From Edaphobacter aggregans (GTDB lineage Bacteria; Acidobacteriota; Terriglobia; Terriglobales; Acidobacteriaceae): a DNA stretch of 32,000 bases. Location of the stretch: assembly GCF_003945235.1 (NCBI RefSeq), contig NZ_RSDW01000001.1, forward strand, positions 120,001-152,000, given 5' to 3'. A program made the position numbers and the translations under genes. The first letter of the stretch is position 1, and the number at the start of each line of letters is the position of its first letter. The notes beneath the pieces are model-generated. The model did no database searches, was not told the origin of the DNA, and saw nothing but the letters and a program-made list of their open reading frames with translations. This document shows positions 11,727-15,926 of this stretch, piece by piece.

Positions 11727-14700
11727 CTATGACGCATCTTCGGCAAAGGCCAGCGAACCGTTCGCAATGTCCATCACTCCGTCACAACCTAACAACACGC
11801 CGATTGCGATGGCGCCTGCCGGCTGGTTGCCATCCTTCCCTACAATGGTTAAAGGCTTCATCGCAGTAGGTACGGGCGCGATGCCATTCTGTACCCAGTA
11901 CAAGGCATTGTACTTACCTGTCGAATCGTCGCTCTGCTCGACGCTGGTTGCGATGCCCATCGCAAACAGGAAAACTCCAGTAGCGCACGTTAGCCACAAG
12001 CCGAAGTCCTGGTTGAATTCCGCGAGCTTTTTTACATCCGAACCCACGGTGAACACCAGCCCGCTCAGAACCGGTATAAAATTCAATGACCAGAGCGCCA
12101 AGGTCATCTGCTCGGCTGTCGTCGATTGCGACACGAAAATATCGAATGGGGCGGTGAGCCACTGGCTTACCATCGTGGTTACGATGCTGGCCCAACTGAA
12201 GAACGTTGTAATCGGATCTGGTGCCAGCGTGGGAGTCGTAGCCGCGGAGTAGGCCGAAAGGTCATTGAGCGCGTCGAAGATAGCGTAAGTCAGCGCATTC
12301 AATACCATCAGGGCGCCCGCCCCTGGAAAGGGAGCGCCCCCCAACAACCCGGCCGTCAGGGAGACCCCGGAACTGCCCCCCGCAAACGCAGGCCATGGGA
12401 AGTTCGAGGCATATGTATTCTCCAGCTCCTCGGCCTGCGCCGGAGTGAACGGCGGGTTCGCATCCGGCATTCCGAAAGTCAGTTTGTATACGATGGTCGC
12501 CGGCACAGCCCCACAAAGGCACATGAGATCCAGCAACGAAAGTGGGTCACCTGAAACCTTCTTATAAATCCAGCTGATTATAGGGATGTCGATGGTCTTA
12601 TTCATTACATCCTGGAAGCCCGTCAACGCCATGCCTCCCAGATCAATCAGTGAATCGAAGACGGCTTCGATGGTATCCAGAATTGCGAGTACCGCGTCTT
12701 CCATCGCCGTGATGATGTCGTACATGGCTACGTCTGCAAAACTCTTCGGATTCGCGAAAAGGGATTGAAGACTTCCTACAGTTTCCATCGGTTGAAAATC
12801 ATTATTCTGAACCAGATTTTGGGTGATGTTGTTATAGAGCACCGTAAACAGGTTCGTCGGATCACTGCTCATCTGCTGCGGAGGGAACGTGCCCCCATTG
12901 CCCGTGTAGTTCGCCACATGCGTGTTAACGTAATTGGTCTGCGTGCCGTTATTGGTTTGCGAACCAGAGACATTGGTCGGATGCAGCGCATCCGGCCCGG
13001 TGGGGGAATTCGACGGAAAGGGCGCAGCGCTGCTGATTGTGGACAGGCTCTTCCCCTGCGCAAATATCGATGAGATGTTATTAAATGCGTTTTTGACCTT
13101 ATCCTTTACGTCCTCGTCATAATAGGTATTGAAGATCGTTTTCGCATAGTACGGCGATGCGGGGTCGGCCAGGTTGGTCGCCAACTGGGTCATCAACCCG
13201 TTAATGCCGGCTTTGAGCACACGCTTCGTGTTGATCACATCGCCCCAATCGAACAGCGCCTTAAGCCAATGAATCGCGTCGTCGACGGCACGCCCGATGG
13301 CGCGGATCGCAGTTTTCACGGCAGAGACGACGTCTTCGAATGTGGCGATAACGAGGTTCATCAATTGATTCATCCCGTTCGCCAGAACCATCGTCACATG
13401 CAACACACCCTGTTCAACATCCACAGCAACATCGGACACTGTGAGTGCGGCCGTCTTTATCGCATGCATGATGTCGTGAGGAAACTTGCACAGGTCATGC
13501 CAGAACGGCGATGCGCCCAGGTCGCCGGCAGGGGGATCAACCGGCGACCATTGACCCGGTGTGCCCCCGCTTTTCAGTGGGACAGTATAAGCGCTGGTGA
13601 TTGCACTGGCTGCCGCCCCCGTATTGCCGACGTAGTCGGGCTGCACGAATGCTGTGGTCGAGTTCGGCTCCCAATCCGGTAGGGTCTGCATAGTGGCGGC
13701 AGAGAGCGTATTTCCTGCTGAGTCAAACTGCGGGCGCCCGGGCAACGCGGCAGCGCTTCCCGAGAGATAGTCATTCACGTTCTGGGCCGGATAAACCGCA
13801 GGTGGGTTTACCAGGTTCGGCGCGCTGAACGAGAACGTCGGTGTGTCAAGATCGCCTGCGAAGAACGCGAACGTTATTTGTCCCGCCTGGTTGGTGGTCA
13901 GCTGCACTGGTTCATCGGGAGTAACGTTGTACAGCGTTTGTCCCACCCATACGCCTGTCGCCTGGTCCGCCGTAATCGAAATCTGTACGCCGGGCTGCGG
14001 CGACGAGTTATCGTCGGTAACAGTCAGTTCACTGACATAGCGGCTGACATATTCGGCGTCCTCATTCGTGCCGGCCGGTTTCAACATCACAACGTCGGTG
14101 AGCGCGCCTGTGATGGCGTCCTCGGAAAGTACGTTTATTTCATAACCCGAATCGAGGCTGAACAGATCCACCGGCGGCGTATTTGCCACGTTCGGCGCCG
14201 ACATCGTGCATCCCGTCGCCAGTACCGCGCACTCATCGCCAAGAGGATGGAATTGGGACCAGCCGAATTGAGGCGGTGTACCTTGAGCTTCGCTAACCTG
14301 CCGGATCACCCAAAGCGAATTGTTGATGTCGCGTGCGTAAATCCGCGCGCCGGAGCTGGCCGTTGCGATCATGCCGGTGGCACCGGTAATCGTTCCGATG
14401 GGATCGCTGCTGGAGTCAGTCAACTGCTGGACGTTAAATGTTTGGAGGTCGGTCATTACGGTCCAGATCTGGCCGCTGGTGTCGAGAACAGCAAGTAGTG
14501 AGGCCGAAATGCCCTGAGGATTCGTGGCGAATGGAATCACCGACGCAAGCGTCGGCAGCCCGTCCACTTTGGCAAGCTTCTCCGCCGGCGGGCCTATCAC
14601 CAGGTCTCCGTTTACGATGGCGCACGTGACCCACTGCCCCCCACAGTTGAAGTATTGCTGCGGGCCTGATAGCGAGGTCTTCATCGAATGCTCGCCGGCA

Positions 14701-15926
14701 GTCCAGGTTCCTTCTACGTTCTGCACCAGGACGAAGTCGCCATTTGAGTTAAGCCCATAAACCATCAGGTTCGAATCGGCTGTGGGGTCGTTCACTACCC
14801 CGATGTTGCTGATCCCCGAATACACCGGCGTCATTGGCGTCCAGTAACCTCCAAACACGCCTTCCTGCTCCTGGAACACCGACCAGTTCAGGTCGCCGTC
14901 AATCACGTAAAACGCATACTGATGGCCCATCGCGTGCCGGCCCGTGACAACTTCGCTCACGCTTAGTCCACCGGTTGTACCCGAAAGATCCGTTGGCTGG
15001 ATCTGCCGGATCCATGTGCTGTCGGCATAGCGCCACACGGTTCCGGTTGTGTCGAGACCCCATAGGCTCCCGTCCATCCCGACTGAAATCCCGTTCAGGG
15101 GACGTCCGGTAGGCTGGGGGACGGAAGTGTTGTTGCCATTGCCGTCACAGGAGTAGAGTGTGATCGCGCCGCTTTGCTCCCTACTCAACGCGTAGAATTG
15201 ATTGGCATTCACGGGCGCGAAGCCGAACATGTCCTCCGGCACCTTCAATTGGTCCCAATAGATGCCGTCGCTGTCTAGTGTATAGAGCGTGTTGGAATCG
15301 CAAAGGGCCCAGACGGCTTGGTCGGCCGAAACAAACATCTGCTCCGGCGTGTTGTTGGGCTGGCTCTGGAACACGGTCCACCCCTCCACCCCGTCAGTTG
15401 CCACAATCGCACTGTTATCGTCGATCGACCAGAGATTGCCCGTACTTCCGACGGGCGAGGTTGAATACAGAACCAATTGCTGCTGCACGAACGAGGCACT
15501 GCCGGGGTCGTAAGCGTAAAGGACGTATTGCCCGTTTTGTTGCGCCGTTCCGTATATGGTCCCGTCGGTCAGCACTGAGATCTGCTGGTTGCCGCCCGGC
15601 AGATTCTGGATCAGGTTCCAATGGCCGGCATTGCTCATCCAGATGTTCTGGTCGTAGTCCGTTATCCAGACGTTCCCGCTGTTTGCCGCACTGATCGTAG
15701 CAACCTGAGCGCCGATGCCGATGATATTCCAGCCGGAGCTGCTAAGCGGTTCGCGCTGCAAATGACAGAGCTCTCCATCGTCGTGAATCACTAATGCCTC
15801 CGATTGATTGCTCGAGTTCAGAAATGTAGCAATCGGATTCGCTGCGGTCGACGAGGCCAAAATCGATTCGGCGTGGATGAAATCCTCGGTTAACTGAGTG
15901 TTGTAAGTGAGCGTGTAACTAGACAT
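11727..15926 (-). CDS. 1399-aa uncharacterised protein: tectonin-like beta-propeller repeats, beta-sandwich region, helical region, multi-TM C-terminus
   Basis: A single uninterrupted 4.2-kb ORF; AGAGGA lies 6 nt upstream of the ATG at 15926. The N-terminus MSSYTLTYNTQLTEDF has no signal peptide. About 11 repeats carry W/Y-rich blades (NVWITDYDQNIWM, GNLWSIDDNSAIV, AVWALCDSNTLYTL, GSLWGLDTTGTVWRY, SGQIWTV, NSLWVIRQ). The C-terminal approx. 360 aa contain about 5-6 hydrophobic helices (MVLNALTYAIFDAL, FFSWASIVTTMVSQWL, LALWSLNFIPVLSGLVFTVG, FGLWLTCATGVFLFAMGIATSV, AIAIGVLLGCDGV). Confidence 0.9.
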   Translation of the reverse strand: MSSYTLTYNTQLTEDFIHAESILASSTAANPIATFLNSSNQSEALVIHDDGELCHLQREPLSSSGWNIIGIGAQVATISAANSGNVWITDYDQNIWMSNAGHWNLIQNLPGGNQQISVLTDGTIYGTAQQNGQYVLYAYDPGSASFVQQQLVLYSTSPVGSTGNLWSIDDNSAIVATDGVEGWTVFQSQPNNTPEQMFVSADQAVWALCDSNTLYTLDSDGIYWDQLKVPEDMFGFAPVNANQFYALSREQSGAITLYSCDGNGNNTSVPQPTGRPLNGISVGMDGSLWGLDTTGTVWRYADSTWIRQIQPTDLSGTTGGLSVSEVVTGRHAMGHQYAFYVIDGDLNWSVFQEQEGVFGGYWTPMTPVYSGISNIGVVNDPTADSNLMVYGLNSNGDFVLVQNVEGTWTAGEHSMKTSLSGPQQYFNCGGQWVTCAIVNGDLVIGPPAEKLAKVDGLPTLASVIPFATNPQGISASLLAVLDTSGQIWTVMTDLQTFNVQQLTDSSSDPIGTITGATGMIATASSGARIYARDINNSLWVIRQVSEAQGTPPQFGWSQFHPLGDECAVLATGCTMSAPNVANTPPVDLFSLDSGYEINVLSEDAITGALTDVVMLKPAGTNEDAEYVSRYVSELTVTDDNSSPQPGVQISITADQATGVWVGQTLYNVTPDEPVQLTTNQAGQITFAFFAGDLDTPTFSFSAPNLVNPPAVYPAQNVNDYLSGSAAALPGRPQFDSAGNTLSAATMQTLPDWEPNSTTAFVQPDYVGNTGAAASAITSAYTVPLKSGGTPGQWSPVDPPAGDLGASPFWHDLCKFPHDIMHAIKTAALTVSDVAVDVEQGVLHVTMVLANGMNQLMNLVIATFEDVVSAVKTAIRAIGRAVDDAIHWLKALFDWGDVINTKRVLKAGINGLMTQLATNLADPASPYYAKTIFNTYYDEDVKDKVKNAFNNISSIFAQGKSLSTISSAAPFPSNSPTGPDALHPTNVSGSQTNNGTQTNYVNTHVANYTGNGGTFPPQQMSSDPTNLFTVLYNNITQNLVQNNDFQPMETVGSLQSLFANPKSFADVAMYDIITAMEDAVLAILDTIEAVFDSLIDLGGMALTGFQDVMNKTIDIPIISWIYKKVSGDPLSLLDLMCLCGAVPATIVYKLTFGMPDANPPFTPAQAEELENTYASNFPWPAFAGGSSGVSLTAGLLGGAPFPGAGALMVLNALTYAIFDALNDLSAYSAATTPTLAPDPITTFFSWASIVTTMVSQWLTAPFDIFVSQSTTAEQMTLALWSLNFIPVLSGLVFTVGSDVKKLAEFNQDFGLWLTCATGVFLFAMGIATSVEQSDDSTGKYNALYWVQNGIAPVPTAMKPLTIVGKDGNQPAGAIAIGVLLGCDGVMDIANGSLAFAEDAS

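Follow-up and report, generated by a model that had tools for sequence, protein, structure and literature searches.

The known tectonins are small lectins, about 220-350 amino acids (aa) long, that stand alone, and Tectonin 2 and tachylectin-1 are single six-bladed propellers. Pore-forming colicins and pyocin S5 have no signal peptide; their receptor-binding part comes first, and a helical domain in which hydrophobic helices are buried forms the C-terminus. RTX toxins and substrates of type I secretion systems (T1SS) are large, acidic and Sec-independent, and can carry a hydrophobic helical pore-forming region. Tectonins form a family of lectins that recognise O-alkylated sugars (PMC5238581). 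LlpA and the L-type pyocins are lectin-domain proteins that act on other cells, mostly without a Sec signal and with no immunity gene; their genes occur singly, and how the proteins leave the producer is not known (PMC6240691, PMC6465234). LlpA is a protein of about 250-280 aa with tandem B-lectin (PF01453) domains, which blocks BamA at the cell surface (PMC13463100). In apple-snail perivitellin-2 (PmPV2), a tachylectin-like lectin chain delivers a MACPF pore-former (bioRxiv 10.1101/2019.12.23.880021). Here we describe a 1399-aa protein encoded in a 32,000-nucleotide (nt) stretch of Edaphobacter aggregans DNA (contig NZ_RSDW01000001.1, positions 120,001 to 152,000), called the window throughout, whose overall layout resembles that of known lectin-plus-membrane-module toxins.

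As judged by sequence comparison, the head of this protein belongs to a known lectin family, and its 600-aa tail belongs to a large superfamily with neither a Pfam or NCBIfam model nor a fold relative. We tentatively read the gene as encoding a stand-alone, Sec-independent, glycan-targeted (lectin-guided) membrane-inserting protein, the most likely role of which would be that of a toxin against competitors or grazers. The open reading frame (ORF) is uninterrupted and is the largest of the window, as a preliminary description of this DNA had stated. It is preceded by a Shine-Dalgarno-like AGAGGA 6-7 nt 5' of the ATG and is not extendable upstream; its leader was searched for a known RNA element or an operator palindrome, and neither was found. 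By its substitution pattern the gene is under purifying selection: in comparisons with relatives of about 96-97% nucleotide identity, dN/dS was 0.16-0.26, with omega <=0.09 for aa 1-110 and no region above 0.46. The gene and the parts of its product are as follows.

11727..15926, minus strand, stop codon included: intact gene for the 1399-aa protein ('paralogue A'), from the ORF list; 99% identical to P0001
15837..15926, minus strand: N-terminal region with the superfamily-wide motif (here TQLTEDFIH), aa 1-30; motif found in relatives of five phyla
14997..15836, minus strand: first beta-propeller, Tectonin-type, about 7 blades, aa 31-310; from PF19193, model and fold matches
14082..14969, minus strand: second beta-propeller, about 6 blades, aa 320-615; from model and fold matches, blade count from the strand list
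13677..14048, minus strand: Ig-like (Big-1-like) beta-sandwich, aa 627-750; predicted local distance difference test (pLDDT) 70-88
13068..13511, minus strand: conserved core 1, aa 806-953; from alignment and model
12855..13055, minus strand: disordered N/S/T/Q-rich linker, aa 958-1024; pLDDT <50
11730..12854, minus strand: helical module, aa 1025-1399; from model, hydropathy and superfamily alignment

The assignment of the N-terminal half to tectonin/tachylectin-type propellers, made in the preliminary description, was borne out by two approaches. First, the Tectonin model PF19193 matched aa 63-230 (profile positions 26-198 of 216) with 41.4 bits, above its gathering threshold of 30 (E = 1.5e-10). 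Second, aa 1-620 were all-beta in an AlphaFold2 model built from a 26-sequence alignment (pLDDT 84.7, predicted template-modelling score 0.85, 50 strands), and the best PDB fold matches of this model were double-propeller proteins (E about 1e-11). Counting the 50 modelled strands suggests two tandem propellers of about 7 and 6 blades (about 13 blades). The second propeller (aa 320-615) was recognised by no Pfam model. About 11 degenerate blades sharing an explicit motif had been proposed: the motif occurs three times, compared with 0.13 occurrences expected in shuffled sequences, but these three are the very examples originally cited, the remaining blades being too degenerate to fit the motif. 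When the 1399-aa protein was searched against PDB sequences, no natural protein was matched besides Tectonin 2 of Laccaria bicolor (PDB 5FSB), and this match was weak (E = 0.046). The first propeller is therefore related to the tectonin/tachylectin lectins, being above the PF19193 threshold and weakly similar to Tectonin 2; however, it makes up about 20% of the 1,399 aa and is accompanied by a second propeller, a sandwich and the 600-aa helical/hydrophobic module. The strand count of the model suggests a tandem of about 7 + 6 blades, compared with the single six-bladed fold of Tectonin 2. Sugar binding is a prediction.

Signal-peptide features, basic or hydrophobic, are absent from the N-terminus (MSSYTLTYNTQLTEDFIHAESILASS...). 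The N-terminus carries a short motif, (S/N)xL(I/T)(E/D)D(Y/F)(L/I), within aa 8-25 (nt 15852-15905), which is kept from Acidobacteria to Streptomyces and in which D15 is nearly invariant. When the N-terminal half was modelled by itself, aa 1-18 came out as disordered (pLDDT <50). This motif could dock on the C-terminal module or serve as a targeting signal.

Residues 560-1399 were modelled separately, with only moderate confidence (pLDDT 65.7). An Ig-like sandwich had been expected at aa 600-760 or so, and a beta-sandwich was indeed modelled with confidence at aa 627-750. Its Foldseek matches were weak, with intimin D00-D0 (prob 0.97, E = 0.3) and with a Big-1 domain protein (prob 1.0, E = 0.12); Big_1 (PF02369) had no Pfam match in the window protein and a weak one in the relative P0038 (E = 0.024). 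Core 1 contains the invariant residue D818, a beta-meander of three strands (828-859) and, at 863-953, three long helices, which carry an invariant W887-L-K-x-L-F-x-W motif. Amphipathic helices had been described at about aa 830-960: the three long helices correspond to them, but residues 828-859 are predicted to form three beta-strands. The linker proved to be as rich in N/S/T/Q as first described (48% S/T/N/Q), and it contains no K/R at all.

The C-terminal module had been credited with about 5-6 hydrophobic helices, and six hydrophobic peaks were found, the positions of which are conserved superfamily-wide (about aa 1077-1098, 1133-1143, 1248-1255, 1285, 1317-1320 and 1382-1386). No such peak was present in the first 1070 aa of the superfamily alignment. 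Similarly, a Kyte-Doolittle (KD) scan of the window protein detected no hydrophobic 19-mer before aa 1078, and the four 19-residue windows with a KD value above 1.6 all lie beyond aa 1129. A second conserved core, IDIP..S.(I/L)Y....L..L.L..A.P.T, occurs at aa 1133-1143. The last 200 aa were modelled as helical (pLDDT 75-89) and vary more within the family than any other part. In 34 superfamily members, the loops of the module had a K/R fraction <=0.12 throughout and a D/E fraction of up to 0.22, with no alternation, as determined by a simple hydropathy method, which is not a trained topology predictor; by this measure the module lacks the positive-inside pattern of alternating K/R-rich loops. 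Acidic, non-alternating loops are atypical of membrane proteins inserted during translation and typical of helical toxins that insert conditionally. The C-terminal helices are probably membrane-competent, but they lack the features expected of a conventional polytopic protein inserted co-translationally.

The composition of the whole protein is unusual for the window (K+R 2.9%, isoelectric point 4.06, S/T/N/Q 29%; superfamily median K+R 4.6%). Three window proteins of cytoplasmic type, a TetR regulator, a transposase and an epimerase, contain 12.0-16.2% K+R, and the only window protein with a similarly K/R-poor composition is a PEP-CTERM protein, which belongs to an exported class. The absence of a Sec signal noted earlier was confirmed: no signal peptide was found in the window protein or in 86 full-length relatives, all of which are acidic and have their hydrophobic segments confined to the C-terminal 350 aa or so. 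No sorting signal, T1SS repeats or anchor motif was found on the 1399-aa protein, the PEP-CTERM motif being on another window protein.

No confident full-length match to a characterised family was obtained, in agreement with the novelty claimed at the outset. On the whole protein, NCBIfam gave no match, Pfam gave nothing at E <= 1 besides Tectonin, and PADLOC-DB v2 gave 0 families at E <= 1; a weak match to a helical PHROGs tape-measure family (E = 5e-4) was judged compositional. Among PDB sequences, the C-terminal profile matched only de novo designed helical repeats. A Foldseek search of the PDB and BFVD with the C-terminal 840-aa model returned nothing below E = 0.1, and matches to GltPh, ClC and G-protein-coupled receptors were discarded as non-specific helical matches. 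The C-terminal module is thus without a match in Pfam, NCBIfam, PADLOC, PDB or BFVD.

The protein is nevertheless no orphan, as it had been called. A search of a 5.8-billion-protein collection yielded 37 close homologues (39-99% identity), none of them named; 33 cover >=98% of the query with lengths of 1397-1685 aa, the longer ones owing to an extra N-terminal Laminin_G_3 domain, and the remaining 4 cover 86-89%. A second search of this collection with a broad alignment gave essentially the same set and no informative names. The named carrier genomes of this close family are metagenome-assembled genomes (MAGs) of Terriglobia (Terracidiphilus, Acidobacteriaceae, Korobacteraceae). Four stretches are conserved among family members (aa 1-110, 560-750, 800-900 and 1101-1150), and the outer blades vary, as do the last 200 aa.

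A search of 1.84 billion representatives (50% identity clusters) with a profile of aa 790-1399 gave at least 2,551 clusters at E <= 1e-3, and 1,513 at E <= 1e-10. Members are mostly 1,100-1,250 aa long, with the module at the C-terminal end; they come from Acidobacteriota, Pseudomonadota, Cyanobacteriota, Nitrospirota and Streptomyces, that is from at least five phyla of soil and freshwater hosts, among which Pseudomonas, Nitrospira, Burkholderia, Variovorax, two cyanobacteria and Streptomyces are named. They are annotated as hypothetical or solely after their N-terminal domain, which may be Tectonin, a PLL-type propeller (PF26607, a faint match in one distant relative), LamG (Laminin_G_3), FG-GAP or BNR-like. 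Family-library scans detected no enzymatic domain anywhere in the superfamily. Thirty-three members could be aligned with the window protein over its full length (20-45% identity), and the invariant or nearly invariant residues are D15, G65, W362, W609, G682, D818, W887, L888, F892, T900, P1115, L1137, A1140, P1142, T1144, F1160, P1260 and G1317. A module of about 600 residues is therefore present in at least 2,551 clusters without a family model, a structure or a name, and no literature on the family was found by accession or by architecture. A phage origin was rejected, since no match was obtained in 50,697 phage genomes or in IMG/VR.

Gene neighbourhoods were compared at 20 non-redundant family loci and 7 distant loci. 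No conserved neighbour was found, secretion, immunity and lysis genes included, the maximum recurrence being 5/20, within syntenic relatives; nor was there a conserved small ORF (>=30 aa) within 2 kb at the 19 loci inspected for it. We conclude that the gene stands alone. The preliminary description had seen no secretion system, immunity-like gene or enzymatic toxin domain nearby, which holds for the window; at the family loci, no such gene is conserved. Candidates rejected by this census as general partners were the TetR gene, a Big_3_5 giant protein, a K+-channel-like protein, DUF3300, the RND and MacB pumps, two Pseudomonas downstream paralogues and the encapsulin-like genes of locus L020.

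Family members are gained and lost. One Terriglobia MAG holds at least three copies, and tandem pairs occur in L027 (42% identity), L030/L031, L007 and L037, the paralogues of a pair being 42-44% identical and from different clades. Decay is represented by an N-terminal-only fragment in L001 and probably by smaller N-terminal-matching ORFs in L003 and L013. In a Terracidiphilus MAG, a 98%-identical locus (L009:9995-12427, compared with L006:1881-6080) lacks the last 600 codons or so, that is the entire helical/hydrophobic module; the loss may be natural or may come from the assembly. Superfamily relatives are found on plasmids and between insertion sequence (IS) copies. It appears that paralogues duplicate, diverge and decay, with dynamics that look arms-race-like.

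These properties can be compared with those of the described systems. LlpA provides a precedent for a lectin toxin devoid of Sec signal and immunity gene, but it has neither a propeller nor a hydrophobic helical module; Pfam found no B-lectin (MMBL, PF01453) domain in the window protein, which has no sequence relation to LlpA. Like colicins and pyocin S5, the window protein is signal-less, with a binding-type part first and a helical hydrophobic part last. However, no colicin-type ten-helix pore domain was matched by Pfam, PDB sequence or Foldseek (E < 0.1), and the absence of a conserved ORF >=30 aa extends to a colicin-type immunity or lysis gene. The logic of PmPV2, a tachylectin-type head with a membrane-attack module, is the one proposed here, but PmPV2 is eukaryotic, made of two chains and uses a beta-type MACPF, whereas the window protein is a single chain with an alpha-helical module that has no known fold relative. 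RTX and T1SS proteins are likewise large, acidic and without a Sec signal; the window protein has no match to Ca-binding repeats, no conserved ABC/MFP pair lies beside the gene (MacB-type genes nearby are sporadic), and its hydrophobic region occupies the C-terminus, where a T1SS signal is expected. Finally, markers of polymorphic toxins (PAAR, Rhs/YD, TPS, MIX, LXG) had no Pfam or NCBIfam match in the protein and were absent from neighbours in the window and at family loci.

We propose that the two propellers, the first of Tectonin type, and the Ig-like sandwich would bind a surface structure on a target cell, and that the unit made of the beta-meander and three helices would couple binding to the C-terminal helical module. 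The hydrophobic helices would be buried in the soluble protein and would insert into the target membrane on contact; release from the producer would follow a non-Sec route. A released, lectin-guided membrane-inserting toxin fits best the domain types, the composition, the absence of positive-inside loops, the lack of an enzyme or partner, and the pattern of duplication, divergence and decay. A toxin-like extracellular role is indirectly suggested by the K/R-poor acidic composition, the extracellular-type N-terminal modules and the paralogue turnover, together with the loop charges.

Several points weigh against this proposal. The layout read in the preliminary description as that of pore-forming toxins or effectors (head, sandwich, helices and hydrophobic tail without Sec signal) is real and conserved across phyla, but the toxin role itself, as well as the extracellular location, glycan binding and membrane insertion, is what we infer from it. 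No known pore-forming family in Pfam, among PDB sequences or among the folds of PDB and BFVD matches the C-terminal module, these negative fold searches being weak evidence as the pLDDT of the C-terminal model is 65.7, and the module has five to six hydrophobic helices where colicin-type domains have one hairpin. Genes for secretion, lysis or immunity are absent from the vicinity, and dN/dS gave no sign of positive selection in any region. Lastly, the same signal-less architecture is found in diderm and monoderm bacteria, so that no single dedicated secretion system would suffice and a location inside the cell is at least as simple.

This last point leads to a serious rival, which we consider unlikely: a tail-anchored inner-membrane protein, the propeller/sandwich part of which (1,100 aa) would be a cytoplasmic sensor. 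A ligand, for example a phage component, would trigger membrane disruption in an abortive-infection-type defence, or the protein would serve other membrane-coupled sensing. Tail anchoring is the simplest topology for a protein that combines a lack of signal peptide with a C-terminal hydrophobic cluster, and monoderm and diderm hosts share one architecture. Defence-type neighbours occur occasionally (AbiEii and DruA in L006; an Eco57I-type methylase, HNH and HD near the L018 member; a TIR protein and an integron integrase near the L024 member), and the association with plasmids and IS copies and the diversification of paralogues are also compatible with defence. However, most contexts are not defence islands and PADLOC found no match. 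The extreme K/R depletion is exported-protein-like, the N-terminal modules (Tectonin, LamG, FG-GAP, Big-1-like) are normally extracellular, and the loops show no positive-inside bias. Absence from phage genomes and viral contigs was rated neutral.

A non-toxic extracellular or surface role, as a glycan-binding adhesin or a matrix/biofilm protein whose helical module would mediate self-association or anchoring rather than an attack on another cell, is improbable. It would agree with the lectin-like and Ig-like domains, with the exported-protein-like composition, with the LamG, FG-GAP and BNR-like modules of relatives and with the soil and biofilm-forming hosts. Nevertheless, the protein has none of the signal peptide, sorting signal, T1SS repeats or anchor motif of such proteins, hydrophobic alpha-helices are not an outer-membrane anchor, and copies are readily lost, truncated and duplicated.

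Extending the toxin proposal to the whole superfamily, which would then be a previously unrecognised phylum-spanning class of Sec-independent toxins with interchangeable lectin-propeller or LamG heads, a new alpha-helical membrane-insertion module and no need for immunity, chaperone or secretion genes as partners, is possible but doubtful. If the module is a toxin module, the family would be a new protein toxin or bacteriocin class with swappable lectin heads, relevant to microbial warfare, soil grazing resistance and scaffolds for protein antibiotics or biopesticides; if it is instead part of a tail-anchored sensor/effector, it would represent a new single-gene membrane defence architecture. 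The family can now be tested: its boundaries and invariant residues are defined, culturable hosts carry it, and one deletion and one putative truncation have arisen naturally.

The natural deletion lies directly upstream of the gene, in a region with the following features.

16024..16105: deletion-junction filler of about 82 nt, at the site of the 4.26-kb B body in L030/L031
16106..16325, minus strand: paralogue B stub (leader, Shine-Dalgarno sequence and the first 35 codons or so, 105 nt)
16692..17300, plus strand: TetR-family regulator (TetR_C_33), divergent from the paralogue B stub
17322..18617, minus strand: full-length IS481-family transposase gene
10648..11087, minus strand: partial IS481-family copy, 89% identical to 18154-18593, in direct orientation
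11428..16046: segment common to close relatives at 96-97% (11644-16046 with L006, 11428-16023 with L030)

The stub has its ATG at 16212 and an in-frame TAG at 16170-16168, and ends where the conserved N-terminus begins. Its nucleotide identity is 78% to the start of P0029, in L001, and 92% to L030/L031, where B is intact. L030 and L031 are metagenome contigs nearly identical to the window (91-99% over shared segments), in which a divergent TetR gene, paralogue B and the 1,399-aa gene A follow one another; B (L030:2836-7200; L031:1139-5605) encodes about 1,455 aa, 81% identical to P0029, and is separated from A by 101 bp in L030. The window, L032 and L047 have suffered a 4.26-kb deletion of B, replaced by about 82 nt of filler, which puts the TetR gene and the promoter region of B beside gene A. 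Replacement of a resident paralogue by an incoming cassette, considered as the origin of the stub, was rejected in favour of deletion of an upstream tandem B because B is intact in L030/L031. TetR, present at 3/20 family loci (75% identical between the window and L001), is thus the neighbour of B, in L001 as well, and adjoins A only through the deletion; describing it as the apparent dedicated regulator of the 1399-aa gene was misleading, and a general co-occurrence of homologues with a TetR gene and a small upstream ORF, which had been put forward for checking, is not observed. An independent case of a TetR-family neighbour, besides the acidobacterial B-type loci, was seen on a Variovorax plasmid (L023, 4356-10512), where a TetR/AcrR regulator and an NTF2-like protein precede a 1,666-aa LamG-headed superfamily member on the same strand.

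It is very improbable that B and A form an obligate heteromer under TetR control, of which the window would keep a crippled half: tandem pairs exist (L030/L031, with the short B-A gap of L030, L027, L007 and L037) and TetR is divergent from B, but the partners of the A clade are drawn from three different clades, which led us to reject an obligate pair, most loci have a single gene, and in the window, L032/L047 and L006, A by itself has stayed intact with purifying selection acting on it.

The gene had also been described as IS-flanked, and the full IS481-type transposase gene and the partial direct copy do bracket it together with the TetR gene. The shared segment comprises the gene, about 100 bp upstream and 80-300 bp downstream; beyond it the contexts differ or are longer. 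No secretion system is encoded in the window. Just past the full-length IS481 copy, at 19380-20511, an AAA_22 fragment ORF (164 aa) overlaps a 218-aa ORF without a Pfam match; these may be the remnant of another mobile element.

Other observations were made at individual superfamily loci. In Pseudomonas sp. SID14000 (L018, 13524-15754), the member is followed, with 23-nt gaps, by two beta-rich proteins, paralogues of 387 and 347 aa, that have no Pfam match and no transmembrane segment but share an N-terminal Y(L)R.NL.S.G.VP....L...PDI motif; a lineage-specific operon is possible. Five consecutive Linocin_M18 (encapsulin-shell-like) genes lie directly upstream of a 1,647-aa member (L020:5573-9720). 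At two family loci (L001:3031-7092 and L008:5422-9546), a divergent gene encodes a giant protein of secreted type of about 1,350 aa, with Big_3_5 and a C-terminal transmembrane segment; these two giants are 34% identical to one another and were not found at other loci. Elsewhere in the window, a tRNA gene lies at 3693-3774, distant from the locus (Rfam RF00005, 54.6 bits), and within the ORF at 21251-21862 (203 aa, weak zinc-ribbon matches) a unit of about 207 bp is repeated three times in tandem, at 21256-21856, with 90-92% identity between the copies.

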